In this document: piece by piece, positions 9,566-36,770 of the stretch
Layout of the letters: every line of letters starts with the position of its first letter
How positions within the stretch are numbered: position 1 is the first letter of the stretch
Virus record (IMG/VR): IMGVR_UViG_3300034022_001261
Direction: 5' to 3' (one strand)
Source of the DNA: a virus
Length of the DNA: 64,000 nucleotides
The notes under the pieces: model-generated
The model's input: only the letters and a program-made list of their open reading frames with translations
Told to the model about the DNA's origin: nothing
Database searches by the model: none
Made by a program: the position numbers and the translations under genes

Positions 9566-12500
9566 GTGTTCAGAGATAGAGGGCCAATACATAACATAGG
9601 TTATGGCGTATCTTCTCGTGAACTACCTTCCGAAGAAGGCGAAACAGAGACGCCAAGTCCTGGCAGTGGCAGGATAGCAAAGGCCCTTGATGGCCACCCA
9701 ATGATGAAGTTCTTGGGTTCTGCAGCTACCGCAATGGTAGTTACAACTGTAGCATCCAGATTAACCAAATCAGGTGGGCTAAGACTAGGAAAGTTTTTAC
9801 AAGATTCCTCTGACGCAGCAATTAAAGCTGGCCATTTAGATAGACCATCTACTAGACTGGTAAAAGGAATCTTAGACCTTAGACAGGGTCTTGATGAATT
9901 AGAATCCGTAAATCGCCAAATTGGTGGAGTAGATGATTATTCTAGATTAGTTGAAAAAGTTGATGGAAAATTAACCACTGGGTATGATGGAAGAAGGAGT
10001 GCTAGAAAATTCTTTGCACCCCTCAGTGAACAGGGTAGGAAGACTACTGGAACTGGCGTAAGTAGCGAATCAAGCGAAGCATTCTTGATGAGGGATCAAA
10101 TCCAGAAGCAGTTAGTTCGAGCAGGCAGAAGAATGCCGTACGAACTTCCAGCACTATATGTAACACAAAAAGCAGTTACTGAACCTCTGTTTGGCCACAA
10201 TCAAGATAAGAAGAAAGTTAATTGGTATAATCCAGCAGACGTTTTAACTGATTTTGTTAAAACATCTACAATCAACGTAGCTACAATGATTTTGCCATTT
10301 GAGGCTTTAGGGGCTGCTGGAGCTGCTGGAAAGAGTTCGCTAACAACTTTGGCCAGCTCTATGAATGACTTGAGTGCCTTAAGTCCAATAAAACAAAAGA
10401 CAGCAGCATTTGCATTTGATCTAAGATCACTCCTTGCTGAAGTTGGACACGATGCTTCAGATGTGTTGAATAAAGGTATCAAACTTTCTTCAAGAACAAG
10501 TGGAGCATTTGCTGCTGGAGTTCAGGAAGCAGATAAATCTCAGCCTGAATTTTTGCAAGCTTGGAGAGCTGCTAGACACGGTGCACAAGATGCCAGCAGA
10601 AGAGCTTCTGACGCAAACGCTGGTAAATTAAAAACATTAACAGCTGGAGCAAAATCTTTTTTTGTAGCTGAGTCTGATGATGGCTTTGGAGTTTTAGATT
10701 CTTTTCCTGGCCTAAGAGGAATGTCTTCTGGCTTTAAAGGATTTAAAAACCAGTTTCATGCGCTTGGTGTTGCACATGATGTTGTTTCCGGAAAACTAAC
10801 AAGAGAACAAGCTTTAGGTAACCTAACAAAAAAGTTTAGTTTAGATAAACCAGATATCTTAGATGAAGCTTTAAAACAAAACCATACTAGGCTAAAACTT
10901 AAAGGACTTACTGGAACTGATTCTAAAACTATTTTAGATAATTCTATAAATAAAATACAATCACAACATTCAAGCAACTTAACAAGACTAGCACACGACT
11001 TCGATGCTTTAGGTAAGGGTGGTCCATCTTCAGAAAGATTTACATCAAGTAGCTTTTATCAAGGTAGGCTAAGAGATGAATACAAAGATCAATTAGAAAA
11101 CAAATTAGTATCTAGGCATAGTATTGATAGAAAAACTGCAAAAAGTTTTGTAGATAACTTAAAGGTTAATGAACTACCTAGAAGAAATTCTTCGGTATCT
11201 TTAGATAAAAGAATTGCATTAGGAAGAAAAGCAATCAACTTAGAGGGTGATGAATTTTTTGATGAAATCATTAAACGTTCTCAAGGAATAAAAGGTGGAA
11301 AAGATTTTGCTAGTGCAATTCCTAAAGGCAGTGCTCTTAGAGAATCTCTAGAAGAAGTTGATAGATTATTTGTATCTCAAGACTTTAGAAAAAATTTAGA
11401 TTTAAATATTCGTTCTCAATGGAATCAAGTATCTAAAAATCAAATTGGGGAACAAGTATCTTCAATACTAAAGCCAACTAAACAAAGTTATACTGACTTT
11501 GTTGGAGATTTAACTAGTGAAAAGAAAAGTTTTCTATTAAGAAAAACTGCAAAAACATTAGGTATTCCATTAACGGAATCTAATGGCAAGTTACTTTCCG
11601 AAAACGTTTTATCTAAAAGCATAGCGCAAAAAGGTTTTGATCCAACTGACTTTGGATACATGAGAGATTACCTTCTTGAAAATAAGGGTTTAACAACAGG
11701 ATTTTTTTCTGGGTCTGGAAGTATATTTGGTTTAAGACCAGTTCTAATAGATGAGGCTGTTGAAAGAGGAATGTTCTCTCACTTGTCGGAAGAGCAACAA
11801 CAAGCAATTAATCAAATAGCTTCTCTGCAGGCTAGTAGAGATCCATTAACTAGAGGACTTGGCTCAGCGACTGAAACTCTTGGGCAAACAAGAGTTGGCG
11901 GAGTCTACCAAACTAGAAATGGAGAAATATTAGACTTCACTAAAGTTAAGAGCGTTTTCTCCAACGCTAAAGATTTCATGGCTTCTGAGTTTAAAGTTCC
12001 AATTCTCAACTTTAACCCAGCTGATATGTTTGGCTATCAATCCTTAAGAGCTGCTAAAGAAGCTCCTCTTATGCAATATGTTTCCTCTAGATCCGTTCAA
12101 CCATTTTTGGGGGCAGAATCTGCTAGACCAGATTTTTATCTATTTACAAAGAATAAAGGCTCTAAAGGTTCTTTAACAGGTTTCTCACAAGACGAAAGAG
12201 GAATACTTAATGCTCAAAGATTAGCTGGTTCATATAGGCCAATATCTTCTTCTAGTACAGAATTAATTAGTCGAGAAGCAAGAAATGCAGCAGGGTTAAG
12301 TGGACAATCAGCTGATGAAATAGCGGGTACAACTGGAAGAATGGCTAGGTTTAGAAAAGCTTTTGATATTGATTCAGAGCAACCAAACTCTTTATTTAGA
12401 TTAGCTCAAAGGTTTAGAAAACGTTCTTATGATATTGAAAATCCAGCTACAATGGCTAAGCTTATCAGAGACAAGTCAATTACCTACAGGCAAAAGGGTC

Positions 12501-15500
12501 AAACTACAAGATTAACACTACAAGGGCTAGACGATCCTAAGGCAGCTCTATCTGTAGTTGATGATCTTGGTAATGTTAGATTCAATCAAAGAGAAATATT
12601 ATCTGCAGTTGATAGCTTTAGAGCTAGAACTTTTGGATCTGGGATTCATTCTAAAGTTAGATCTGAGCTTGAAGCTTCTAGGCCAAATCTATTCACATCA
12701 AATGGAGTAAGTTCTTCCCAAGTAACATCTCATCAAAGCTTTAAAGATGTATATGAAAAACTATTTGGAGACCTAGCAAATACAGTATCAAAGATAAGAA
12801 ATGCTGGAAAAGATCCAAGAGAAATAATAGCAGCTCATTCTAAGCTAAATAAATATTTAGACCAGTCTTACTTCAATGCTTCGTCTCAATTATCTGCTAG
12901 ATCAGGAGTCATCAACACAAGGTTAGATGAAGCGTCAAATGAAGTATTCAGGTTAATATCACTAAAAAACCAAATGCTCAATGAGACAGAAGATATATTT
13001 ACTCAGACTACAAAAGCAATTAGAGATCTTCAAAAGCAAGGCAAGATAGGTTTAAATGACGCTATAGAAGCTAGGATAGGAGCTTTAGGAAATCTATTCA
13101 ACTTTAGTGCACACGCAACATTTAAGGGAGAATTGTCTGCAGTAGCAAATGCAAAAAATGCTCTTAGGGAAGTATCAAGAAGAACTCAATCTAGTGAAGA
13201 TATAGCTTCATTATTCTCTCCTTTTACAACAGGTGCAGATTCTATGGTTGGAGCTTCAATCAGAAGGCCATTCTCTAGAGCTTTACCGTTTGTAAAAAGA
13301 AGATTTGGTTCTGCTCCATACCAAATAAGCGAAGACGCTGTCAACACTCTTGGTACTGGTCAAGACTTTACTTTTATCCCAACTTTTGGAACAGCTCTTG
13401 AGAGAGGCCCAGCAGCTGCCATTAAAAGCGCAATGGGATTTGGAACCTATAAAAACCAAGATGCATTCTCTACTGGATCAGTAGCTAGCTCTCATCTTGT
13501 TTCTAGAGTTAATAAATATTTTGGTACGTTCGGTTTACAATTAGATCAAAGTAAATATGGCGGACCAGTCGACATGTACATGCGTGGCATGGTCGGCAAA
13601 AGAGTATTACCAATTGTTGCTGGAGGTACAACATTACTAGCTGCAGATAGAACTATCGGTGGCTATACAAATGAAAAAGATAAAAATGGAGAAAGAGTTT
13701 ATTCTCCATTCTTTACAACAAAGATAGCAAGGGGTCTAGTTGAGACCCAAGCTATAGGAGCAGGTTTAATTCCTGGTGGAATGTCAGCCGAAGAAAAGAA
13801 GAAACAACTTCTTGAGGGCGAAGTTCCTATTAAGCAAGGTAGATTTTGGCCTCTGGGTAGTACACCTTTTATGGGTGGAAAAACAATGTACTATCGTCCA
13901 TCGTATTATCGCAAACTTAAAGAAGCTGGAACCTACACATCTGATTCATTTGAGTCTCCTTTAGAAAAGTTAGCTTATGGGTATGATTTCTCTCCATTAA
14001 GGCCACTTGACCCATATCGATTTGAGCGTCAACACTACGAAGATAGACCTTACCCGGTTAGTGGCGAATACTTTACGGGACCATTTGGTCCAGCTACTGC
14101 TCTAGCCAATATGACAGTTGGAAAACTGCTTAAGCCTCAAATTAAAATGCACGAAGATGAGCTAAAGCAAGGTTTAGCTAGCTACCAAAGAGCTGGAGAG
14201 TCTGGAGCATATGACTCCACAGGCTACATGGGAGCTTCTCAGGGGGGTTTTGGCGGTGGCATGGGGTACGGTGGCACTGGATCCTCTGGAGGTGGCTTAT
14301 ACGGCTCCTCAACGATGGCTATTGGGAACTATAACTCAAGATTATCTCAGGCTTCCGCCCCAATGGGAACTGCTAGCAGGCAGGTTAAGTCAACTATTGG
14401 TGGATATAACTCTACCCTAAGAGATGCCGTTGGCTATGGTCCACCTAAAGTAAGTGGCATAATGAGTCCTTCGTTAGTTCCCGCTGGGGAACCAGTTGAG
14501 TCCAATAAGCTAGGAATACAAGCTGGAGAATTAGGGTATAGAGCCCAAGAAATGGCTGGTATCTATGGTTTTGCTTTTGGTCAAGTAAGAGAATCATTTG
14601 GATTTGGACAAAGTGACTATGAGCCTCAAAGATCAGTTTTACAATCAGCAGCAAAGGGGTATGGCTCAACGAGATCATTCTGGGACCTTAACTTAGGTGG
14701 ACTTGGTGATGCTCCTATGGGTGGAGAAGGAGCTCTTGGTAATCTTGAAGTTTCTGAAGTGGTTAGAAGATTTATTCCAAAAGAAAGATCTAATGTTAAT
14801 TATATTAACCCAATTAGAAATACTATGGGAGAGAAATATCCGTTCTTGCCAGGAGCTGAATATTTTACTGACTTTCAAAGAGGAGATCCATTTACAAAAG
14901 TTGCTGATGGAGAAATCAGACTTCCTGGAAAGGGGTACGAAAGATTTAATACAGTCTCCGCTGACGAAACTGGAAAATATGGAAAGCTAAACCAATTAGA
15001 TATCCTTGCTGATATAGCTCCTTATTCTAAGCAATTTAGATCTTTAAATAATCAAATACAAACTGGTTCTCTTTCTCCTGATGAAAAATTAAAAGTACAA
15101 ACAATAAGAGATCAAGTAGCAGACACTACAAGTAAATATGATTTTACTCCATATAAGTATAAAGATTCTACAGCTGAAGAAATGGGGATGAATCCTAGAC
15201 TTCATACAGCAAGTAGAATTGGAGAATACTTAGCACATAGAGATACTTTCTTTAATACTAAATTCATGAACAAAAGAACTGCCACTGAAGATTGGGAAAG
15301 AAGAAATGTTTATGGCTCTACTTTCCCTGAGTGGCAAAGGCCATATGAGAGTTTTATTGAACCAATGGTTAATAAAGCTTCTCAAAGAAATCCAATAGTT
15401 GCAACAGCAGCAATGGCAGCAGCAGGCTCTATGTTTGGTAAAGGCATGAGAGGTAAGACTTTAGGCTCCATCATAGGCGGAGCAGCTGGCTTTGCTTCCT

Positions 15501-16210
15501 CAATAAGAGGCAACTTGCATGAAGCTATAACTGGTGATAGGTTTATCCCAGAAACAAGAAAAAAAGAATTAGCACTTGAAGAATATACTGATATTTTAAG
15601 TTATGTAAAAAATACAAGTTTAGCAAATCAAGCTCAAGCATCAGGAGATGCAGCAGCAGCAACTAGTTTCCAAACAGCAGCAAAAAGAACTATGTATGGA
15701 GCTGATTTAGAAACTCCATCATTAGAAACACTTTCCCTTTCAGTTCCAAAAAGAAAAAGAGAACACTTTAAGGCAATGATTAATGCTCCAGAAAATGAAA
15801 GAGAAAAAATTCTTTCAACAGCAGGAAGATTGGAAAGAAGAATTTATCAATCAGCTTGGGGAATGCCAGTAGAAGAAAAGCCTGATTTAGCTGATTATTT
15901 TTCTAGACACGAATTGCCATCTCAAAACTGGGAAGGTTGGCACCCAAATACCAATCTTGAACATGTAAAGATTAAAACTGGTGCTTCAATGGGTCTTGAA
16001 ATGTCTCAAATGGGTTACTATCCACAACAGATACGTGAAGCTAATTTAGCTAATCCATCTTATCCTTCTTTCTTTGGAGGAAACAATAGTCAAGATACGG
16101 GAGCTCAGCTTAGAGCAATGATGTCTCGCATGGGAGTTTCTGGATCAGTATCGCCGGTAAAAAATCCTTATGGATCAAATTCAATTAATATTAATGCAGG
16201 AGTTAGATAA
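9566..16210 (+). CDS. Tape-measure-like protein (2214 aa, GTG start)
   Basis: AGGAG SD before GTG. It is the first very long ORF after the tail chaperones, largely helical and Ala/Gly-rich, with hydrophobic segments (e.g. IVATAAMAAAGSMFG...LGSIIGGAAGFASSI). Positional and compositional inference. Confidence 0.6.
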   Translation: MFRDRGPIHNIGYGVSSRELPSEEGETETPSPGSGRIAKALDGHPMMKFLGSAATAMVVTTVASRLTKSGGLRLGKFLQDSSDAAIKAGHLDRPSTRLVKGILDLRQGLDELESVNRQIGGVDDYSRLVEKVDGKLTTGYDGRRSARKFFAPLSEQGRKTTGTGVSSESSEAFLMRDQIQKQLVRAGRRMPYELPALYVTQKAVTEPLFGHNQDKKKVNWYNPADVLTDFVKTSTINVATMILPFEALGAAGAAGKSSLTTLASSMNDLSALSPIKQKTAAFAFDLRSLLAEVGHDASDVLNKGIKLSSRTSGAFAAGVQEADKSQPEFLQAWRAARHGAQDASRRASDANAGKLKTLTAGAKSFFVAESDDGFGVLDSFPGLRGMSSGFKGFKNQFHALGVAHDVVSGKLTREQALGNLTKKFSLDKPDILDEALKQNHTRLKLKGLTGTDSKTILDNSINKIQSQHSSNLTRLAHDFDALGKGGPSSERFTSSSFYQGRLRDEYKDQLENKLVSRHSIDRKTAKSFVDNLKVNELPRRNSSVSLDKRIALGRKAINLEGDEFFDEIIKRSQGIKGGKDFASAIPKGSALRESLEEVDRLFVSQDFRKNLDLNIRSQWNQVSKNQIGEQVSSILKPTKQSYTDFVGDLTSEKKSFLLRKTAKTLGIPLTESNGKLLSENVLSKSIAQKGFDPTDFGYMRDYLLENKGLTTGFFSGSGSIFGLRPVLIDEAVERGMFSHLSEEQQQAINQIASLQASRDPLTRGLGSATETLGQTRVGGVYQTRNGEILDFTKVKSVFSNAKDFMASEFKVPILNFNPADMFGYQSLRAAKEAPLMQYVSSRSVQPFLGAESARPDFYLFTKNKGSKGSLTGFSQDERGILNAQRLAGSYRPISSSSTELISREARNAAGLSGQSADEIAGTTGRMARFRKAFDIDSEQPNSLFRLAQRFRKRSYDIENPATMAKLIRDKSITYRQKGQTTRLTLQGLDDPKAALSVVDDLGNVRFNQREILSAVDSFRARTFGSGIHSKVRSELEASRPNLFTSNGVSSSQVTSHQSFKDVYEKLFGDLANTVSKIRNAGKDPREIIAAHSKLNKYLDQSYFNASSQLSARSGVINTRLDEASNEVFRLISLKNQMLNETEDIFTQTTKAIRDLQKQGKIGLNDAIEARIGALGNLFNFSAHATFKGELSAVANAKNALREVSRRTQSSEDIASLFSPFTTGADSMVGASIRRPFSRALPFVKRRFGSAPYQISEDAVNTLGTGQDFTFIPTFGTALERGPAAAIKSAMGFGTYKNQDAFSTGSVASSHLVSRVNKYFGTFGLQLDQSKYGGPVDMYMRGMVGKRVLPIVAGGTTLLAADRTIGGYTNEKDKNGERVYSPFFTTKIARGLVETQAIGAGLIPGGMSAEEKKKQLLEGEVPIKQGRFWPLGSTPFMGGKTMYYRPSYYRKLKEAGTYTSDSFESPLEKLAYGYDFSPLRPLDPYRFERQHYEDRPYPVSGEYFTGPFGPATALANMTVGKLLKPQIKMHEDELKQGLASYQRAGESGAYDSTGYMGASQGGFGGGMGYGGTGSSGGGLYGSSTMAIGNYNSRLSQASAPMGTASRQVKSTIGGYNSTLRDAVGYGPPKVSGIMSPSLVPAGEPVESNKLGIQAGELGYRAQEMAGIYGFAFGQVRESFGFGQSDYEPQRSVLQSAAKGYGSTRSFWDLNLGGLGDAPMGGEGALGNLEVSEVVRRFIPKERSNVNYINPIRNTMGEKYPFLPGAEYFTDFQRGDPFTKVADGEIRLPGKGYERFNTVSADETGKYGKLNQLDILADIAPYSKQFRSLNNQIQTGSLSPDEKLKVQTIRDQVADTTSKYDFTPYKYKDSTAEEMGMNPRLHTASRIGEYLAHRDTFFNTKFMNKRTATEDWERRNVYGSTFPEWQRPYESFIEPMVNKASQRNPIVATAAMAAAGSMFGKGMRGKTLGSIIGGAAGFASSIRGNLHEAITGDRFIPETRKKELALEEYTDILSYVKNTSLANQAQASGDAAAATSFQTAAKRTMYGADLETPSLETLSLSVPKRKREHFKAMINAPENEREKILSTAGRLERRIYQSAWGMPVEEKPDLADYFSRHELPSQNWEGWHPNTNLEHVKIKTGASMGLEMSQMGYYPQQIREANLANPSYPSFFGGNNSQDTGAQLRAMMSRMGVSGSVSPVKNPYGSNSININAGVR

Positions 16211-19200
16211 TGCCAATGAATTTTCCTCCTAGTTATTATGCTCCTGAATATCTTCAAATGCATAGAAGAGCCTTGAAGAATACTATCTACGGTTCAGGTA
16301 ATGTTATCAAGGTAGAAATTGATTCTGGAAAAATAACTTATGTTATGAATGCTACTGGGATAAGATTCAATACCTATGAAGAAGCATTCAACGCAGCAGA
16401 TACTTCTGGTTTAACTGGTTTCGCTAGAGTGACAGGAGGCGGCCCTGGACAGTCCGGTTCGATGAGAGGATTAGGGGGATTTAACGAAAGAGTTAGATCT
16501 ATGAGGGAAATGTTAAGAACTGATAGTACTCTTAGGGATTCTCTTTCTTTTATTAATTCTCCGGCTGATCAACTAAGCTTCAGTATAGGGTCAGCTAGAA
16601 TCCCAGAAGGAGCTAAAGAAACAGCAAAAAATGTTTTGAAAGATGTTTCAGAAGGAAGAGGATTTATGTTTCAAACAAAAGACTCTGGAACCTTTGTTAG
16701 AGCTTTTGTTAATGGGGAAGAACTAACTGATGTTCAACTCAACGAACTTTTATATAAAACTAGTGATGGTGCCGGTGGATTATTCTCAAATGAGCAAATA
16801 CTCAAATCTCTGCAAGAGGGGAAGTTGGGAGAACTGTTTCAAAAAGCAGCCAAGAGAGGTAAGGGTATTTTTTCTTTAGATGGAATTTCTTTAGCTGGAA
16901 ACGATTTACTTAGCTTAGCTAAGGGCTTGGATTCTACTCATAGTACCTTTGGTGATTCTATTAAAATATTTGATACATCAAGTGATTTAACCAAAATAGC
17001 TTTAGCTTATTTAGAAGATACATCTCTTAGTGGAGAAGCTTTAGTTAAGAAAGCAATGTTTGGACTTTCCGCTAGAGAAATAAATGAAGCAGCTGCTTAT
17101 TATGGAAATTCCAATGCTGTTCAATCTGCATTAAATTCTATGGAAAGCCTTGGTATTGTATCAACTAAAGATGGAGGCATAGCAAGATTAACAAATGATT
17201 ACCCGGAAATAATAGAAGCATTAAAAGATCCATCAAAAGCAAAAGACTTAAAGGGAGAAGCATTAAAAAGGTATGAAAACTTAATGGAGCAATTCCAAAG
17301 GCCATATGATGGTTCTACTCTTATAAACAAAAAATTTTTAGACGGCATACGAAAAAACATGCAAGCAGAACTGAAAGTGCTAGAGAAGAAGGGAACTGCC
17401 AATCTAAGTCCAGAAGAATATGAAAAAATGAAATTTCTAAGAAGTGATATAGCCAATTCTGCATCAGGAATGGACTCAGAAACTATTCGATTTAATTTCA
17501 TGAGAAATGGTAGAACATTTAACATTAAAGGAGTTGGAACAACAGCTGAACTAGATTCTAGATTAAGTCGATATACTACAGTTACCTCTAAGGCTAATAT
17601 AAAAAAAGAATTAGCTATTATGGGTAAAACTGATATGGCTAATATAATCCTACAGGGCAAGGCAAAAGATTTAGTTTTTCAAGATCCACTTGCACCTGCT
17701 TTCCATGGTGAAATTTTTTCTTCACAAGAAGCAATAGATTCTACCATGGAAAGAGGCAATAGAATTCTAGCTTCTTATCAAGAGGCTTTAAAGACAGGTA
17801 ATATAGATAAAAGATTAAGAAAACAAATTTATGCAGCATCAGATATGGCGGTTGATGCACTCCCTTCCGAGTTTAGAACAAGTGCAGAAAGATCTAAACG
17901 CTATGCTAATCTTCTAATTGAAGCCTTAGAAAGCGGTAGAGACATAAGACAAATGCCGCAATTGTCGAACTACTTAATGAGCTTTGTTCAATCTGAAGTA
18001 GCTAGAGATAGAAAAGGAATAATGGAGCCAGTCATGGAAAATGTTTTTAGATTTTCAATTGACTCGGAACTAGCTTATTACTCAGGTAGAAAAACTACTG
18101 GCATAGAAAAAGCTACTTTAGAAGATGTTAGTAATTTTCGACTATCATCTAAATCTGGAGCACAAGAAATTGGTTTAATGAATTTTAAAATTAGAGGGCA
18201 TAAAATGTTAACCTCCGGAAACGCTGCTAATATATTTCACCATTCTTTGGGAACATTTGACTTAGACGACAAAGGTATTCCAATGATGAGAGTCATGGAT
18301 ATTTTTGGTGAACGTGGAGAAAAAATTGGCGAAAGAATTGGATTCTTTACAATTCGTCAACCAACTGGACCTGCAGAATATGTATTGTCTATGGCTCAAT
18401 TTGACACAGAAACAATTAGAGCTACATTTGGAAAAAATCAAAGTTACGTTGCTACCTTAAATAGAGTTGTAGCTGATGGAACCGCTACCCTAGATCAACA
18501 ACTGCTTCATAGAATTGTTTCTCCAGAAGATATGACAGCAAAAGAAATGATGGCATTTGATACGCGTCATGCGCAAATGTTTAGAAATCAAGCATCAATT
18601 CACGAGACAATGATTAAAACTATGGAGCAATCTGAAACTCCAATAGCAAGAATTAGCCAAGATATTGTTAATGATTTAATTGGCGAAAAATATGGTTCTA
18701 CGTTAGCTATGAGTAAAGATAAATATGATCGTTTGCTAGGAGCTGGATTTGATGAAAAACAATTAATGGCGAATTACAGACAAGGTAATATTTTTAAATT
18801 GTTTGCGGAGTCGGGAGCTTATGATTTTGAAAAAGATTCCATTCAACAAATACTTGATGAAACTAGTTTATTTTCTTCTTCCGAAAGAGCTGAGATAGGA
18901 AGACTATCGGCAATTGACGGCGAGGGTGTAAAAATACAAAGTGCTTTAGCCAAGATGATGCAAACTGGAACACCGGAACAAGTTGCTAAAAAGGAACTTT
19001 TTATTTCTAATTTAACAGCTAGGGAATTTGGGATAAAACAATTAAGAGCGGCAGAAACAGCAGATTCTCTTGGACTTTATATAAATAGATTAACCATGGT
19101 AACAGCTTCAACTAGACAAGGTGACGAAATACTAAAGCACTTAGATGCCGCTGATGTTCTAAAATTAAAACAAAATTATAAAGTTGGATTAATAGATCCT

Positions 19201-30400: not shown

Positions 30401-33400
30401 TTTAGAAACACAATGTGGTCGGACCCTTATGCTAGAGCATGGCTAGTGCTAAAGCCAAACCGTAAAATGAGAGGTCATGATCAATGGGATTTTAATCCTG
30501 TTCTAAAAATATTTCAAGCTTACATAGATCCTAACTCCACCTATGGCAAAGATGCTCAAAAATTTAGAAAGTTACTTGCAGAAAATAGAGGAGAAGGTTC
30601 TAGTGCTACCAATATTGTTGGCAAAGCGGGAGAAGAGATAGATGGTTTCTGGGATGCAAATATTGGTCCACTTTTTACCGCTCTTGGGGACAGCTTGTCT
30701 GGCTTAATTAACTTATTTAGAATGTCAATGATGCAGTTGGGATACGGTCTTGGCCAAGTTGGTCAAATGTCAAAACAAGCTAACATATTAAACAAAGCTT
30801 TAAATGATTCGATTTATTATTCTTTGGGCAGACCTGGCTCTCTATTAAGAGCTGTAGATAATCCGTTCACAAGAGAATATGGTGAGCCAGTTGTAGAAAT
30901 CAGAGAACCATTCCAGAGGATGCATTACATTAGTTCTTTCTCGCACATCATATCTAATGGAATTCAGGAAAATATTTCTGGAGTTGCAACTAGTATCACT
31001 GCAGTATCGGATGGAAAATACCCAGTAACTGTAGCTATGGATAAATCTACTCCGTCTGAAAGGCAAGTAGAAAAAACAGTAGAAACTGGCTTGTATTACG
31101 ACAACGTAAGTGGGTCTGGTCTCTTCGGAGCTCTTCAACCAATACTTCATCCTTTTGAATTTGCTAGAGGCATTTCAAAGTTTGCTCAAGGAACTCCGGA
31201 TGAACTTTCTGCTAGAAGAGTAGCTCTAGCTCACCTTAAGGAATCTCTAAAAGATATATATGGTGGAGAGATTGTAGTAGTGGGAAATGCCGACATAAGA
31301 CCTCACGACCTTGTCTATCTAGCTGATGTTTATGAAAGAATGTATGGCATGTTTGAAGTAGAACAAGTAGTACATCACTTTACTTCTGAGCTTGGATTCA
31401 TTACTTCTATAACTCCTAACGCATTAGTTACAGTTAATGATCCATCTAGATGGTTCATGTCTTCATGGGTTGGCACTTGGTTTCATATGCAAGCCTTAAG
31501 AAATGATACTAGACTATATATGAACTCTTTAGGTTCTGGCGTTACCGCATCAGCCCAAGTAAGCGTAGATGGTTTGGCCTCATCATTGCAAACTCAAATG
31601 GTAGGCGGGATACAATACACCCATGGAGCATCATCGATAGCAAAAGATGCAATGGCGAGTTTTACTGCTGAAGGTTTTCAAGATATTAATGACAATGTAA
31701 GGACTATGGTTGCCAATAAGACTAATAACCCATCTGCTAAAGGTGGAGTGGGTTCAATGTTTGCGGCAATGACTGGTCTTGGAGCTGCTGCTACAGCGAT
31801 AGCAACCCTTGCAGTTCCTGGTAGTGGGGCATTGCTTGCTGGTGGTGCAGCCTTAATAGGAGGTAGTGCTGGTGGAGGCCTCGCCTGGAAGGGTTGGAGT
31901 TGGATTAGAGATAACGTTCTTGACCAACACGGATGTTATATACAATACTTGAATAAGAATGGTCAAGCTATGGACGCAGGACTTAATCAAAGCGGCCAAG
32001 GAATGGTAGTGGGAAGATATGCTACTAAGAAACTTCTTCCAGGAATATTAGGCGCATCAACTAAGGTGAGAACAGTTGAAGGATATGAATATATTAGAAC
32101 TGATGATCTTCTTAAGAATCTTGGATGGAGAGAAAAAGAAATAAATGATCTTACTAGATATATAAGCCTTGAGAACGCATTGGTTAATGCTCAGGTGTTG
32201 AAGTACTCTGGCATAGGACCAGAAAAAACAGGATTAAATAGATTTTTCAAAGTGATATGCAAAGTCAGTAAAGTAATTGACGGTGACACAATTGATGTTA
32301 TAGACATATTTGATAAGGCTGAGGTCCCATTTAGGGTTAGATTTGATGGAATAGATACACCTGAATTAGCTATCGTAAAATCTAATACTGACACTCTTCC
32401 TCCTAAGACTGTTAATGTAAAATCTATTAAAATTAAAAATAATATTATGTTTATTAAATTTGATTTAACACTTAAAGAATTTAGCGATTTAGTTGACAGC
32501 CCAAGTAATTACTTTCAAGGGTCTGATGAAAATGATGGTAAAACTGGGGATAAAGTTAGAATTTCAATTCCAAACTTTAATGGATCACCATTAATACTAG
32601 ATGGAACAATAGCAATTAATGGAAAGCAATATGAAACTATAAAAGATACTACTACAATTACTCCAAGTTTTACTAATGGCGTACAAAGATTTAAGCTATC
32701 TTCCAGTGCTGTTAATTCTGATTTTTATGTTGGATCTAGAGTTAAGATATATAACAAAAATTCTCCAGAAGTTAATTGGATGGAAGGAGTAGTAACTCAG
32801 GTAGATTCCAATCCAGCAGCTAATGATTATGGCATTTCTGTAAACGTAGATAATAAATCTGGAACTACTGCATCAGCAGTTTATGCTGTAAGTAATAGAC
32901 TCTTTTTAAATGGATATATAACAATCCCATATAGGCACGCAGATGTTCAAGAAAAAAATTATACTGGCAACGTAACAGTATATTCATATAAGTCTACTGA
33001 ATTTAAACTTAATACATCGCCAGGTGGAGCTTCAACATTGTTTACCTTAAATGCAATTAAAGACAAGGTAATAGTGTTAAGAGTTAATCCAGATACCAAA
33101 AAAATAACAGCAATAGTTGGCGAAGATGACTTCGAAGCCGGAGCCCAAAAGAATACTTATGTTTCCTATGGTAAGGATATTTATGGGTCAAGAGTATTGG
33201 GAACTATATTCTATAAAACTACTCAAAAAATAATAGATTCTTTAAGTTTAGAAATAAATAATTTATTTGTAAAAAACAAAACTTTATCAGATACAGATAT
33301 AAAAATTCAATTAAAAAACAGTTTCTACGATGGAGTGTTTCATGATAGATTTACTGAAATTTATGACGCAACATCAACAACGTCTTTAGTCGACTACTAC

Positions 33401-33688
33401 AAGTTATATGCAGCGAGCAAAACTAATTTTATAAGTACTACAAATGCAAGAATAAAGATATATAATACATATTTTGCAATGAGAGTAATCAGAGATATAT
33501 ATCAAAAAGTTTCAGATTGGCCAAATATAGCTTGGGATGAATACTATGATGATGGGACTCCAGCTTCTTTGAACTGGGAACTTGTGGTAAATAATTTAGC
33601 TAAAGTTTATACTTCCGGACTATTAGTAGAGCAGCCGTCAATAAATACATCAAGTGAAACTTTAGCAATAGGAAAAAACGGAGCATAA
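21473..33688 (+). CDS. Giant baseplate-hub polyprotein (4071 aa) with tube-like domains, a gp27/gpD-like hub and a C-terminal staphylococcal-nuclease domain
   Basis: Two tube/Dit-like segments (~22880-23370, ~24740-25110). Hub motifs RLKPGVRVHLRAGYG...VFNGVITQV...ITAQSD and YGGEIVVVGNADIRPHDLVYL...FEVEQVVHHF...GFITSITP. SNase motifs VIDGDT, RVRFDGIDTPE, DIYGSRVLG, LNWELVVNNLAKVY. Confidence 0.7.
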   Translation: MTSLNTQVTAFMKALDKAKYDAILADVTNLINIGQRALNEIKSIIQSDSSTAFKNKYNNINDENNLFFYTWKSLKNGYEGFNDGTNLKPGSPATITKIKAVYAKIKAIEDAGKGTPRYPVTEPRDGGIIVQVPSEVFVNIFIFDNVFATTKLNDVYGNKAITDYMFRVFLKKEAFDASDANIYVENAVRVTGVNNFVKVAYRDSFAGSLAALRAIKDKLQNYEPGAAEFVATPEADAVEDANSVVAESQFKNFMAEAGIGFDLRSEVATRYPGVLRDDPKLDKTKKSFYRIFAEDLNNIDDNNKYVKNIWNRIKLSGLLELALQVNSISDFARKRFSVGTNLTVGAKGTIANAIDPVRDTMWLNDLTNAITNLTRDPITLAVIQKYFPNLITLFFNAIAAAADYNPSAGSQDDPINNPDELARSLLRAFGTDKDGKPIFQAAWAIENTGQKIRKALEQFPFRENIPPKTPDIFHFRLGAANFYVPPISIEVNSQFKTGSLTGGAIRQKSSPKFNAGYKQTSINLKLFFPNYEEIWGITIDGIKEVKLTNDFKIDFKVGGESEEKIDKFLSSLRGLIAAFKYAPILPVKNHYLNTVHGITGVALSSMSISTIPNYPFAVVVDLELLNFNHKPFLPMIKDFNQAVHWGKYRHYMGKAAGSLHSYVNASFFMEKAVPDATTVTPASLSPGSANYSPGLTQDGLTISNSLTPVPPSDSNIENIYEPDLLTNPFTNDVFNTNVIKEWKNGNNISLFIPAQTQSKLFTPDTSSFRSIQEREMEDLGGSFWDARLKSLGIDINQSSKYHRDLDSVVETSIEGSVAPSARKLVLNAIELIVAGATSPLLSGPAKIVTIGDGTKTSFVIPHNFNTKNVSVTVIEAASPNGLIPTAWEATSNRSITVTFDSAPSANSLKVSIKESEYNERIYEYLVTSFVLENKNKLNQNEINYLRVVPAEKNKIPQHFTTRAQVYKFKNKNLILERQGQPNQSYNLQEVRILFEKSSKGTESYLDSLALQDATEKSLRTGLPISKFLEDSEKDIGRAFTVLFYNRFFKSGPMQDTLEKYRLSRSRSGDGGIFGNGVATFNEWEVPMIKVDLDPKSVIVNGVSVTLGNNLAKMQLQMQEEPTYQHIGGKDTYLNISMTIFGEKELIKIRNVFEHINGLARLEHAAGVIGFMGIKNIIAGLAGMKYVMPLSYEVNTIPNFPHVYDVKMSFVDFDIFQQQREQLSSKQQQEMVDTFKTKKNPFLRIKQLWGAFNAYPDFPLTIKDDQGEVVGCLDPDYYFRSFEMFDRDIINNITVQTEKNKDFIITPKQYNTASSSEQAKADVAIMNAIKDFVKNDKISELKKYFEEQGIGARESVSYVEGAIKQFFNNQKKQLIIDYIKEFPEIDGTVAIFGSEYEIGSNATGIELKAGDIVSSDQSKINELNSYLSGAKGTGDEDGYISFNPDNLGIHHVITLLPAQENTSEDKVPAIFTTAMGYHLGYMSKLNNKFYLTIDGVEVTKSESTGQIGYRPIPISHQDVDSPSKSYSPGQKTHTGVAGSTPADYADPYSNGSADKPEVMATKSKVPSTTKHWEKMLIDTQYRDISGRMLRAFPTYMLWLIDEGGYFAGVKLFDNFYGLQSIIDFSIVQSEDILGDTLMLRVSNLYSKLTTPASNSLFDKTDESYNDQVSTQDAMDSVIANVLNRSMNLQNHMDSTFVVDINNIRLKPGVRVHLRAGYGSNPNSLQTVFNGVITQVENGEIVTITAQSDAIELSPIVNSTNKKGDSGKIDGGINTGFWLSEPRDLMVRLLSMGSSRSREALAHATRGTIFSENKFGIRHFGSILYQPLNDLEQAKNDAVTASVKDAFESLGTGSGNLFGAGSVIGVLSSGTNDGEGSLNGIGPEIRVPGVSLMKTLWANFSTQRDFEIFKRNIYPGNGTGIAQFLGGDLGDGWSTIASLTPEDKPNERINYIGRATDVAWNNLTTAYGQGNQTATSVMDAYNVGNELRNSNGSASLTSGIISGGIVLAGVGVAALGAPVFGAAIGLTGVLSGRGGANIFNAMGITSGMDDDLPGLDEVSFRAQTYMRSVWDLFQTCARLLPNYIVAIRPFEDRSTVFYGKPHWLYTSGVVPLTAGFDTDQRAQNAGVNYPRMVDIDQNTQEIINSLNKESNPFADAEAFRNANQTLVPIDTILGAQGGTSGNIELYAPGKKLAGRLVAFGVASSIYYKKDGKVVSKLPSDSGYATVGYHLPITGNGTDIVVDLSKEQLAQHKQIDQLPYRYRFPFFTDREDGIVLEDYAYYALSNQLGKWNNHRADYMTLAVDDWAYGTVGAKKEETEWIKLLKLEASIFTGINTVDTTNTRNSNEVGIGLKFKLSATLSFNNELEDASAYIYSEKNKTTMGSENVIRMPYPDLRKNNAPVIDGADREYAIIGKTINRANNAASIMEWGSPMTALEEQFYIAMRWPYNPGEGLNDWSVENFKLIHNITDTYGSVQDYKSRKVLVYSPTTGIAVVCKPAYFLWGDKKVSILAPTVDSDAEDAGLRDGIDEFGNTVEPKTESGGSGGNALGLGLDVELDAIVSPDAAYFLGMLNLTANETTFWQDGDSSKSEDSWHGAETAIINAAKANIAPFPVPRKCLYAFVPDDTPLGVVPDVFLPSKEFERPTDLSELVKPKKIIGFGSFKGNKSIINPNFINGKESYQFTFDKTTSDYTTAIEVMGSAKLAGNIMGKEGLSTGGYFDLVKKNKYTELSRDSLKAILDKETADSGEGKEAIGRKRFVGVYTETDMVSIDARKLYDEDFDQSVSVLAGDGRTLQQAADIWDQFRLGYHTYTNVKEAFQNAYGLDPDSEEKLIDLGSLGAAIGTDTPPPDSGANTTSASSIFKKYGDTGDSADDEFTAVFGEDFFATTTVSSVERSRGLTGINGDKIKQALDLSRQKFIDGSIENDGLIEYFNDLVTSKVEGIKSIISDGIKLAGVDPEDYLGTVETPKQLFLYLVGAFRNTMWSDPYARAWLVLKPNRKMRGHDQWDFNPVLKIFQAYIDPNSTYGKDAQKFRKLLAENRGEGSSATNIVGKAGEEIDGFWDANIGPLFTALGDSLSGLINLFRMSMMQLGYGLGQVGQMSKQANILNKALNDSIYYSLGRPGSLLRAVDNPFTREYGEPVVEIREPFQRMHYISSFSHIISNGIQENISGVATSITAVSDGKYPVTVAMDKSTPSERQVEKTVETGLYYDNVSGSGLFGALQPILHPFEFARGISKFAQGTPDELSARRVALAHLKESLKDIYGGEIVVVGNADIRPHDLVYLADVYERMYGMFEVEQVVHHFTSELGFITSITPNALVTVNDPSRWFMSSWVGTWFHMQALRNDTRLYMNSLGSGVTASAQVSVDGLASSLQTQMVGGIQYTHGASSIAKDAMASFTAEGFQDINDNVRTMVANKTNNPSAKGGVGSMFAAMTGLGAAATAIATLAVPGSGALLAGGAALIGGSAGGGLAWKGWSWIRDNVLDQHGCYIQYLNKNGQAMDAGLNQSGQGMVVGRYATKKLLPGILGASTKVRTVEGYEYIRTDDLLKNLGWREKEINDLTRYISLENALVNAQVLKYSGIGPEKTGLNRFFKVICKVSKVIDGDTIDVIDIFDKAEVPFRVRFDGIDTPELAIVKSNTDTLPPKTVNVKSIKIKNNIMFIKFDLTLKEFSDLVDSPSNYFQGSDENDGKTGDKVRISIPNFNGSPLILDGTIAINGKQYETIKDTTTITPSFTNGVQRFKLSSSAVNSDFYVGSRVKIYNKNSPEVNWMEGVVTQVDSNPAANDYGISVNVDNKSGTTASAVYAVSNRLFLNGYITIPYRHADVQEKNYTGNVTVYSYKSTEFKLNTSPGGASTLFTLNAIKDKVIVLRVNPDTKKITAIVGEDDFEAGAQKNTYVSYGKDIYGSRVLGTIFYKTTQKIIDSLSLEINNLFVKNKTLSDTDIKIQLKNSFYDGVFHDRFTEIYDATSTTSLVDYYKLYAASKTNFISTTNARIKIYNTYFAMRVIRDIYQKVSDWPNIAWDEYYDDGTPASLNWELVVNNLAKVYTSGLLVEQPSINTSSETLAIGKNGA

Positions 33689-33691
33689 AAA

Positions 33692-36395
33692 ATGGATGAT
33701 TTAAAATTTAATGTAGATGACTTGGCTGACTCATCTACAATAACTAAAAAAGTAGCAGAAAGTTTTTATCCAACTGGAGAACCATTAAAAACTTCCTATT
33801 CCCAAGACCCTAATGCAGCAAGCAGGCATCTGACTCAAAGGGACTTGCAAAGCATATTAGGTGGAGACGCATTATATAGAAGCCCAAACTTTGCCCTACA
33901 GATAAGTCAAAAAAATACAGAATCAAGCATTGCCTCAATACTAGCAGCCAACCCAGGAACTGATGCATCAGGGAAGGGCATTGTTATATCAGACCCAAAT
34001 TCACAAAATGCCAATGCAACCCTAACTCGGATCTACTGCCTTTAGCCAAATAGTGGCTAGTGGGTCCTTGGGCAAACAAGGCCTAGGTTATAACCTGCCC
34101 AACGTTCTTACCGACTTATCCAATAGCGTTGGCCCAGATGGAGCTCCGCATAGCGATACGGTTGGTAGCTTTAACCCGACTACAGCAGCATCTGGTGCAG
34201 GTAGAGCAGTTACAATAGCAAGTCAATTAACTCCCGAAGAAAAAACTATTTTTGAGGAAAGAATGAAACAGGTAGTTTCAACTGGCATTGTCAGTGATAT
34301 TAATCAACTAGCTTTTACTTTTAGGGCAACTGACTCAGCAAAAATACCTTCTACTTCAAAAATATACCTTACGGCATCTAGAGGGGTTAATAACAATAAT
34401 AACCCGATATTGAATACTGATCAAAGCTATTGGACGGGGATTGACGGTAAAGTAGCCTACACTTGTGCTTCAATGGTAGAGCTCTTACTCTGCCTTGGGT
34501 CCAGTGGGTCGGGGCTATATGTAAAAGGTAGCTTGGGTGCTACTAATGGTTTTACTGGTGCAGCTCAAGGAAACATGTTGGATCAGGGTACTGTATCTGA
34601 CCATACATTTGGTAGAGCTTTTGACATAACTATGGTAGGAAGGTCTAGCTCAGATGCAGTTAGTCTTGCTGGTAAGAACGTAGATGTTTACAGAACTGCA
34701 TTAAACCTAATATTAGCTAAGCTTAAGACAGTCCCAGAGTATCTTCATCCTGATTTAATAGTGATTCACGATCAACTTATGACTGAGTATGGGATAGGCA
34801 ATGGCTTTGAAGGTGATTTTGCAAGCACTAATGCTGCATTAATAATAAAAAATTACCCTGAGTTAGTTAGAATAAATTTTTCCGGAGATGCAGGACATAG
34901 GGATCATATACATATGTCATTTGGCCCAGCAAGAGCTGGCTCTTATGAAGACTGGGTAGATTCAGATGAAGGTTCATCAGGTGAAGGTGATCCAGATGCT
35001 GGTGACCCTCCTGCTGGAGATGCCGGTGATATCTCCGAGCTTGGCCAAAGCTACGCTCAAGGGCCAACATCAACACATGCATTGAAGAATAAGAACGCAC
35101 TCTACAAAGCATTAGTAACATATGGTGGATACAGTGCAGCAGCAGCTGCAATATGGATGTGCATAGCGGAAAGAGAAAGTAATTTTAGCCCTGGCGGATT
35201 CAATGGCCTAGTTAACGACAGTTCCGGTACGCCAAAGGGCACTAGTGATTATTCAATTGGTCTTTGGCAAGTAAACTTTTTAGGAATTCCAAGTCTATTG
35301 ACTAAAGCCTTAACTTTAGTTAGCTTAGATTCAACAAACACAAAATTAGTAAAAGTACTTGGTCGTGGTTATAAATTAATCGACAAAGATTGGGAAGCAA
35401 ATGGGACGAAAGATCAAACTACTGCAATAGCAAAAATGAAAGAATGGTATAAGGTTAATCCTAAAAAGCCAGATGATTATGGTATTAGTGAAGGAAAGTT
35501 GCATTCTGACCCAAGATTATGGAATGCCCTAACCCAAATATTCTTGTTGTCAGAATTAACCGCCAAAAGAAAAGATATGTGGATGTGGTGGAACTGGGGA
35601 GAATATGGGACAGAAGGAAAAGTTGGAGAAGCGTACAGTGCAAGCAAAAGACCACCAGCAGGGTGGCTAAGGGGGCTTAAGTTCCAAACAGCGGTAAACT
35701 ATTATCTAGCCAATAATCCAGGGAAAACAGCGGAAGACCTTAAGTCTTGGGTAAAGAAAAAGGGAACAGACAAGAATCTTAGATCCAGTAAAGAATTTTT
35801 AGACCAATGGTTAGCAGGGTATGTATTTAAAACTAACGGTGACATATCGACAGTACCAGAAACAGCTGCTGGAGGGATTCCAACATTTACTAAAACACAA
35901 ATTAAAGAAGCTGCAATTTGGTTAAGGACTAATAGGTTAGATCCATGGGAGGCAAGGACTGGTAATGCCTTTGGCTGCGAGGCTTTTGCTAGTAGGCTCG
36001 GTGCTGGAATTGGTTTATTTGGTCCAGTCAAAAGAGATTTGTTTACAAAAGAATGGGATAGGAAAGATGGAGATAAAAGACCATCTAGCAATCTGACTTC
36101 ACATGATACTGCGCAATCGCATTACGAATCAATAAAAGATCGTACATCCTTTTGTAAACCAGGTACATTATATGGGGACAATCCTCCAGCTGGGTATTTA
36201 GTATTTTGGACCGGTGGCACTGGGGGTAATAGTAACTATGGTCACGTAGCTATTTCGTTAGGCGATAAAACTTTTATAGATCAACACGTCACCAATTCAC
36301 CCACACCCACAACGGCAACTACACCTAAACCATTAGGTGGTCAGATTTGGCCTGGAAGTAATTATACATATGTCGGATCTTCTCCGGTTTGGTAA
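33692..36395 (+). CDS. Tail-associated peptidoglycan hydrolase (M15-type Zn peptidase + SLT/lysozyme-like + CHAP/NlpC-P60), ~900 aa, apparent +1 frameshift at 34028
   Basis: The two track ORFs (33692-34045, 34053-36395) join by skipping C34028 (...ATLT-GSTAFSQIVASG...). Motifs: H-x6-D (SDHTFGRAFD) with DHIH; RESNF...GLWQVN; GCEAF...PPAGYLVFW...YGHVAISLG. Confidence 0.7.
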
Positions 36396-36405
36396 AGGAA
36401 ATATA

Positions 36406-36769
36406 ATGGCTATAAATTATCCAAAATTTGATAAAAAAATAGATGAGCAAATTCAGTCAGCCCACATGCAGAGAGCTAAGACTAGAATGGGAACTATTGC
36501 TCAGTACGATAAGCATGCAAACACTGCGGTAATTATACTAGAATCAAATTACTCAGATACTATTGGTGGTATAATTAAGAACGTATCTTGCCCAATAGTA
36601 TACCGGACTTCAAATGGTTAGCCCAGAACCAGGCGATAGATGTATTGTAGGGTTTAAAGATGACAATGAAAGATATGCATACATAGTCACCTTTATAAAT
36701 GATTTTTATAATGGCAGGACTACAAATATGAATATAGCAAACACCGGCATACCTAGGTTTATGATTTAA
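36406..36769 (+). CDS. Baseplate spike/gpV-like OB-fold protein, ~120 aa, apparent +1 frameshift at 36604
   Basis: ATG 36406 after an AAGGA SD. Reads MAINYPKFD...RMGTIAQYD...TAVIILE...IKNVSCPIVY; skipping C36604 gives GLQMVSPEPGDRCIVGFKDDNERYAYIV...GIPRFMI*. The P-x-x-G-D-x-V-x-V-x-F pattern is typical of gp5/gpV N-terminal OB domains. Confidence 0.65.
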
Positions 36770-36770
36770 A

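Follow-up and report, generated by a model that had tools for sequence, protein, structure and literature searches.

A staphylococcal-nuclease-like domain, split by two inserts, at the C-terminus of a giant baseplate hub homologue from an uncultured freshwater phage

What does a nuclease-like domain do at the end of a giant phage tail protein? The question is raised by a 64,000-nucleotide stretch of DNA (IMG/VR record IMGVR_UViG_3300034022_001261; hereafter the window) from an uncultured ~210-kb freshwater phage. A single uninterrupted frame at 21473-33688 on the plus strand, the strand of all P0001 features given below, forms a giant open reading frame (ORF) that encodes P0001, a protein of 4071 residues, and its 3′ end encodes a domain resembling staphylococcal nuclease (SNase). 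An earlier note, made from the letters of the sequence alone, had proposed a calcium-dependent nuclease, interrupted by two large inserts, at the C-terminus of a baseplate hub. Judged from a structural model together with several sequence links, the last ~480 residues of P0001 truly belong to the staphylococcal-nuclease (thermonuclease) superfamily, although they have diverged within it. We tentatively favour an active, tethered tail-tip nuclease as their function.

An SNase fold assembled from three segments

The last ~480 residues form an SNase-type domain in which the oligonucleotide/oligosaccharide-binding (OB) core is built from three sequence segments, with two large insertions between them. 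A linker helix and a G-x-GPEK loop precede the domain at 32150-32239; both are conserved in two alignments of the family, A1 and A2, and the helix was modelled at positions 7-20 with a low predicted local distance difference test score (pLDDT). Core segment 1 (β1-β3; 32240-32365; pLDDT 92-95), the part found by Foldseek and by profile matches, contains VIDGDT from nucleotide 32273 (residue 3601) and RVRFDGIDTPE at 32333-32365. It is followed by insert 1 (216 residues; 32366-33013) at the site of the SNase omega loop, and then by core segment 2 (α1, β4 and β5; 33014-33214; pLDDT 82-94), which contains GGASTLF from 33023 and KDIYGSRVLGTIFY at 33173-33214. Insert 2 (33215-33517; pLDDT above 90), composed of four to five helices, lies between β5 and α2 and leads to core segment 3 (33518-33622), the most conserved part of the family, with a WP-x3-WDEYY-x-DG motif and the α2 equivalent (LNWELVVNNLAKVY); SLNWELVVNNLAKVY occupies 33566-33610. 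A short C-terminal tail with the stop codon completes the frame (33623-33688; pLDDT below 50). Each motif named in the earlier note was found at its place in the frame 21473-33688, and the inserts, which it had put at ~215 and ~115 residues, measure 216 and 117 residues, the latter counted between motifs and corresponding to ~100 residues between fold-based core boundaries.

By alignment with SNase, D3603, D3605 and T3606 of P0001 are equivalent to D19, D21 and T22, R3623 to R35, D3628 and T3629 to D40 and T41, E3631 to E43, and R3907, within KDIYGSRVLGTIFY, to R87. The window's copy has equivalents of all of the Ca2+ ligands Asp21, Asp40 and Thr41 (D3605, D3628 and T3629), as well as of the catalytic residues Arg35, Glu43 and Arg87 (R3623, E3631 and R3907). 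The equivalences first drawn for DGDT, R35, D40/E43 and Arg87 were borne out in this way, with two amendments. The arginine that had been likened to the DKYGR motif is present as R3907, in a YG-R motif that is one residue longer than that of SNase (YGSR). The match of NEALVRQGLAKV, which had been assigned to the terminal helix, is to SNase helix 2; in SNase the stretch NEALVRQGLA forms helix α2 (residues 98-106), and helix α3 comprises residues 121-135.

An AlphaFold model was constructed for the last 512 residues of P0001 from the 66-row alignment A2, and had a mean pLDDT of 75.5, with the three core segments and insert 2 mostly at ~80-96. When the whole 512-residue model was submitted to Foldseek, just its first 42-46 residues aligned, to four SNase entries, the best three of which gave root-mean-square deviations (rmsd) of 1.6-1.8 Å and probabilities of 0.95-0.97. 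Because the inserts break the alignment after the first segment, a gap-tolerant structure aligner was needed, and VIA-align was used against 48,161 representatives from the PDB. The top match was SNase (1sta_A; Z 11.2, rmsd 3.3, 110/137 residues, 26% identity), with model residues 31-491, a range that includes core segment 2, placed on 1sta_A residues 7-116. The following 11 core matches were all SN-type folds. The SN domains of Tudor-SN and the SN-like folds of extended Tudor proteins came next after SNase, and lower-ranked rows covered the inserts only. In the model, therefore, the separated segments assemble into an OB-fold SNase, as had been anticipated from the motifs.

Sequence comparisons provided additional links to the same superfamily. 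The N-terminal segment matched phrog_452, annotated 'endonuclease' (E 8e-7), the NCBIfam thermonuclease NucI (E 1.5e-3) and, in an hhalign comparison, the canonical free-standing SNase encoded by the same genome (E 5.9e-5). The middle segment of relatives with shorter inserts gave sub-threshold matches to Pfam SNase (E 0.0035-0.05), and the family profile also retrieved the free-standing SNase genes of related genomes (E ~5e-4 to 8e-4).

The free-standing SNase gene of this phage is located ~3 kb past the end of the window, on the minus strand (L001 1507-1950, equivalent to G000:C1:32342-32785). It encodes a protein of 147 residues that scores 53.7 bits against Pfam SNase, carries Asn at the Asp40 position and has no signal peptide. 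Its neighbours, as read from their translations, are nucleoside-2-deoxyribosyltransferase-like, 2OG-oxygenase-like and glycosyltransferase-like ORFs, and it has ~980 close relatives in metagenomes.

The carrier protein, the inserts and the family

P0001 aligned with gp147 of Bacillus phage 0305phi8-36 in five collinear BLASTP blocks (E 4e-22 to 3e-6) and was matched collinearly by phrog_20474 (E 1.6e-118). The best-conserved block, residues 1564-1821 (26162-26935), is 54-92% identical among relatives; the remaining blocks of the gp147 alignment lie at 22889-23371, 24647-25189, 27659-27775 and 30896-31441. By tblastn, matches were also obtained to hub proteins in five Bacillus phage records, which represent four phages, and in one Moorella jumbo phage. 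Previously, gp147 was assigned by comparison of hidden Markov models as a baseplate hub of the T4 gp27 / P2 gpD type (PMC2147016). The genes around P0001 appear to form a baseplate module, with sheath genes upstream and, downstream, a Baseplate_J match and weak tail-lysozyme, gp25-like and gpV-like matches. A collinear gp147 homologue within a baseplate gene module agrees with the carrier that the earlier note had named. It is from this homology and synteny that the 'hub' label itself derives. For residues 1500-1900, which span the hub-homology block, the AlphaFold model (from a 53-row alignment) had a pLDDT of 42, too low to show a gp27-like fold, and Pfam Phage_GPD had no match anywhere in the genome. 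A Kyte-Doolittle scan additionally revealed two hydrophobic segments rich in Gly and Ala, one at residues 3429-3462 (31757-31858), ~130 residues upstream of the nuclease domain, and one at residues 1992-2030; in the alignment with P0001, gp147 likewise shows a hydrophobic stretch beyond its last shared block.

The domain is widespread among uncultured phages. A HMMER scan of 1.84 billion representative sequences recovered 48 relatives, many of which are the C-termini of proteins of 3,568-3,920 residues; one further entry in the homologue list, P0049, was discarded as a TPR-repeat false positive. At least 149 loci in IMG/VR, from phages of ~205-216 kb, have the domain closing a giant ORF, and the stop codon falls within 0-22 codons of the domain in all 61 distinct locus sequences examined. 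The same position was found in each of the five related genomes tested, four of which are complete (205-216 kb) and three of those have terminal repeats. No match to the domain was obtained by megablast or tblastn among 50,697 phage records, so that no cultured phage in that set matches it. Among 185,579 prokaryote genomes, the sole match (L168 5001-5939) was on JBDNFI010000028.1, a 106-kb contig that is binned with a Cyclobacteriaceae metagenome-assembled genome and is itself probably a phage contig. The match hints weakly at a host among the Bacteroidota, too weakly for a host to be named.

The two inserts differ in their distribution. Insert 1 directly follows Glu43, at the SNase omega loop, and is lineage-specific, with 15-40 residues in most relatives, ~100 in L010-L015 and 119 in L008 and L035. 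A length of 216-220 residues is confined to the window, L002 and L003, in which an extra piece of ~98 residues is nested in its barrel (32624-32917 in the window). Insert 1 has grown by nesting, from 15-40 through ~100-119 to ~216 residues. Its outer part was modelled as a small β-barrel with generic structural matches only (Z 5.5-6.8), and the nested part, modelled with low confidence, had a weak Pfam match to Tudor_KDM3B (E 0.007). An Atlas search on insert 1 returned sub-0.9 leads only, to phage tail and E1_FCCH-like clusters. Insert 2, on the other hand, is family-wide, at 98-152 residues in all rows but that of P0046, a distant protein of 207 residues, in which it measures 21. It had no significant fold match among the 48,161 PDB representatives; histone-like matches with Z up to 7.0 were rejected because they fall below the background for helical folds.

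The residues expected of a working SNase are for the most part retained. The full set of D19, D21, T22, R35, N/D40, E43 and R87 is kept in 39 of 55 full-length relatives, the R87 position is Arg in 48 and Lys in 15 of 66 rows, and the equivalents of the nucleotide-contacting residues Tyr85 and Tyr113 are mostly Tyr or Phe. We collected 17 representatives that are less than 70% identical on the core (38-69%, mean pairwise 51%), without using D19, D21, T22 or R35 in choosing the group. These four residues were invariant in 17/17 representatives, compared with just 17% of core columns. Position 40 is occupied only by Asn or Asp, and a tree from a quick IQ-TREE search indicated that Asn40 is ancestral and that Asp40 was gained five times independently. 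Asn at this position is compatible with a working enzyme of the SNase type, since the canonical SNase of the genome also has Asn there. Outside the catalytic positions, columns W457, P458, W462, D463, G469, L474 and N475 of alignment A2 are invariant.

A proposed tail-tip nuclease and its alternatives

The reading that we tentatively favour, as plausible rather than probable, is that the domain is an active Ca2+-dependent nuclease of the SNase type, tethered at the effector position of the hub and acting outside the cytoplasm on nucleic acid at or in the envelope. Ca2+ would be held by Asp3605, by Asp3628 (Asn in most relatives) and by the carbonyl of Thr3629; the phosphate would be bound by Arg3623 and Arg3907, and Glu3631 would serve as the general base. 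As the domain sits in the position of the peptidoglycan hydrolases of gp147, downstream of a hydrophobic Gly/Ala segment, it would be a permanently tethered tail-tip enzyme, cutting DNA or RNA at or in the host envelope while the phage adsorbs and penetrates, for example extracellular DNA of the matrix or bound to the surface. Characterised SNases need roughly millimolar Ca2+, far above cytoplasmic levels, and an extracytoplasmic role fits this need. The fold, residue set, conservation and position on a hub homologue were observed; what is known of SNase biochemistry, and the wall hydrolases found at the same position in gp147, are the grounds on which we infer activity, Ca2+ dependence, compartment and substrate.

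Several observations weigh against this reading. At the level of homology, Pfam SNase (PF00565) matched neither the window's domain, even at E<=1, nor the whole protein, and its threshold was reached by no member of the family, the relatives scoring 14-18 bits against a cut-off of 21. We attribute these low scores to the split architecture, which lowers the formal family assignment and not the superfamily homology. Searches of PDB sequences with phmmer and with the family profile found no SNase and nothing relevant. No counterpart of SNase helix α3 was detected, the structural match covering SNase residues 7-116 only; after the α2 equivalent P0001 has only ~21 residues, modelled with low confidence, and insert 2 may substitute for the missing helix. 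At the level of function, insert 1, which follows the general base Glu43, could cover the active-site cleft. The phage's own genome would be endangered by a non-specific nuclease beside the channel through which the DNA leaves. As the phage also has a free-standing SNase, which lacks a signal peptide, SNase chemistry may act in the cytoplasm as well. Lastly, a clade of 15 relatives (support 100) retains the domain with T22, D40, E43 and R87 replaced, and conservation across the family is highest not at the catalytic sites but in the non-catalytic WP-x3-WDEYY-x-DG...LNWELV motif, which together indicate that the domain also has a non-catalytic role. From the alignments, the domain looks like an enzyme in most lineages and like a part that matters structurally in every one of them.

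One alternative is that the nuclease is an injected effector, carried across the envelope by the hydrophobic segments of the hub to cut host DNA or RNA in the cytoplasm, either for host shut-off or for nucleotide supply, like the nuclease effectors on spikes of the type VI secretion system. Two strongly hydrophobic Gly/Ala segments, one of them ~130 residues upstream of the domain, and a conserved catalytic set would both suit such a role. We nevertheless consider it unlikely, since the Ca2+ need of SNase chemistry far exceeds cytoplasmic levels and the domain is covalently tethered to a structural protein of 4071 residues in which we found no cleavage site. In gp147, moreover, the corresponding position is taken by cell-wall hydrolases that act outside the membrane (PMC2147016).

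The clade without the catalytic set, and the concentration of conservation in non-catalytic motifs and insert 2, would also be expected if the domain were a structural or binding module. The SN-type OB fold and its helical insert would then serve as a scaffold, perhaps forming a trimer interface or a plug, docking the spike or a lysin, or holding the end of the DNA; the domain could do without catalysis or keep only a vestige of it, as the SN domains of Tudor-SN do. Scaffolds without enzymatic activity are indeed known among insert-split SN-like folds, which rank next after SNase among the structural matches of the domain (Z 8.9-11.1). What makes this account, too, unlikely in our judgement is that D19, D21, T22 and R35 are invariant across lineages 38-69% identical on the core and that position 40 is restricted to Asn and Asp, a pattern not easily accounted for unless the domain has a site for metal or phosphate.

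It is improbable that the domain is instead a phosphodiesterase whose substrate is some other polymer of the envelope and not nucleic acid, such as a phosphodiester-linked capsule or a teichoic-type polymer, and that it functionally replaces the wall hydrolases of related hubs. The lineage-variable β-barrel inserted beside the active site, for which the searches gave leads only, could be seen in this light, as barrels of this kind often bind glycans in phage tail proteins. No SNase-family enzyme is known to have a capsule- or teichoic-type substrate; the equivalents of Tyr85 and Tyr113, mostly kept as Tyr or Phe, also speak against it. The domain does share its position with the peptidoglycan hydrolases of gp147 (PMC2147016). 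Finally, that the domain is not an SNase relative at all and represents a generic OB fold with chance motif matches would account for its being missed by Pfam and by PDB sequence searches, and is highly improbable given that the top structural matches are all SN-type folds, that five independent weak-to-moderate sequence links point to SNase, and that all seven functional residues align in the right order.

A broader proposal, possible though doubtful, is that an active tail-tip nuclease operates across the whole group of ~210-kb freshwater phages, either as a 'DNA depolymerase' ridding the host's matrix or surface of extracellular DNA or as a delivered effector directed against host nucleic acid, with the omega-loop barrels as lineage-specific targeting modules. 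Virion-borne tail-tip enzymes are known to cut polysaccharide and peptidoglycan; if the proposal were true, the baseplate-borne virion enzymes would gain their first demonstrated member that cuts nucleic acid. A conserved nuclease at the tail tip raises the questions of which nucleic acid needs cutting there and how the phage's own DNA is protected as it passes. The family is itself a natural experiment with ready-made controls, as it spans at least 149 contigs, mostly with the catalytic set kept, one clade in which it is lost, and graded insert sizes.

Neighbouring genes, candidate frameshift sites and known systems

Other features of the locus concern the hub and its neighbours. Within P0001, an Ig-like module (24014-24208, residues 848-912) matches phrog_2647 (E 9e-10), phrog_8309 and phrog_16122 ('head decoration', virion-structural). 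Two giant ORFs of 2214 and 1599 residues (9566-21009) lie immediately upstream of P0001 and have no Pfam or PHROG match; the location of the first suggests that it may correspond to ORF146 of 0305phi8-36 as the tape-measure gene. The ORF that follows P0001 (780 residues; 34053-36395) has a weak match to Phage_lysozyme2 (E 0.0011). It is probably this protein that bears the tail-tip wall hydrolases which, in related phages, form part of the hub itself. An ORF of 117 residues after the hub was considered as the counterpart of the gpV-like ORF148 of 0305phi8-36 and rejected, as no likeness was detectable.

A candidate gpV-like spike gene (36406-36770) appears to be split by a +1 frameshift. Frame 1 runs from the ATG at 36406 to TAC CGG (36604-36606) A and ends at a stop codon at 36619-36621, and skipping A36607 opens frame 2 as far as the TAA at 36768-36770. 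The frame-2 part yields the genome's only match to Phage_base_V (PF04717), with E 0.007 when the whole genome is searched and 0.044 for the piece alone, and in the window this match starts right after the CGG-A site, in another frame. A similar site was seen in a relative (G001; IMGVR_UViG_3300044630_006293, complete, 210,831 bp), in which the hub gene occupies two overlapping frames of 2505 and 1481 residues, the second of which ends in the SNase-like domain. The two frames overlap by 23 nucleotides within L174 8871-8930 (equivalent to G001:C1:30870-30929); the overlap includes GGA CGG A, at which they are linked by a +1 slip following the CGG. Unlike that of G001, the hub gene of the window is uninterrupted and has no in-frame CGG codon (0 of 4071 codons).

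Among known systems, the evolved VgrG proteins of type VI secretion and the Tal-type phage hubs, which have lysin domains at the C-terminus, offer a functional analogy, in that an enzyme is fused C-terminally to a gp27-like hub and is the first part to reach the target envelope. The comparison with an effector-extended VgrG that was made in the earlier note holds as an analogy and not as membership, since Pfam and PDB sequence searches detected no VgrG, gp5 or Phage_GPD signature in P0001. The known effector-extended tail tips of phages carry wall hydrolases, not nucleases. In Tudor-SN and extended Tudor proteins (3BDL, 2WAC, 4B9W), which gave the second-best matches (Z 8.9-11.1), an SN-type OB fold is likewise broken by an inserted β-barrel. 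These are catalytically inert eukaryotic scaffolds with 9-19% identity in structural alignment, compared with 26% for SNase, whereas P0001 keeps the catalytic residues.

With S. aureus nuclease A (PF00565; 1STA, 2SNS), the domain shares the OB core over 110 aligned residues at 26% identity, the active-site equivalents, and recognisable α1 and α2 motifs. It differs in its 216-residue omega-loop insert, its helical insert of ~100 residues, the lack of a detected α3 and a score below the Pfam cut-off, and also in its setting, as SNase is secreted and the domain of P0001 is tethered to a virion protein of 4071 residues. P0001 provides a clear natural case of an SNase fold that accommodates insertions of great size, one at the omega loop and one ahead of helix 2.

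The closest comparison is with gp147 of 0305phi8-36, to which P0001 is collinear in five blocks, with a similar gene order around it. P0001 is twice as long, and its nuclease stands where gp147 has its C-terminal wall hydrolases; gp147 carries a transglycosylase at its N-terminus and NlpC/P60 and M23 peptidase domains at its C-terminus (PMC2147016). Nucleases on this hub family were already reported in 2007, in the only paper on a virion- or tail-associated SNase that our literature search found: that paper in Virol J described a staphylococcal-nuclease-related domain on the hub homologue of the prophage-like element BtI1 and termed its utility obscure (PMC2147016). The nuclease domain of BtI1 is N-terminal, whereas that of P0001 is C-terminal and split by inserts. 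What is new here is this C-terminal architecture, split twice and with nesting in the insert of the omega loop, together with the family-level picture of an ancestral Asn40 and one clade of catalytic loss, and the finding that a nuclease appears to have taken over from wall hydrolases at one and the same position of the hub.

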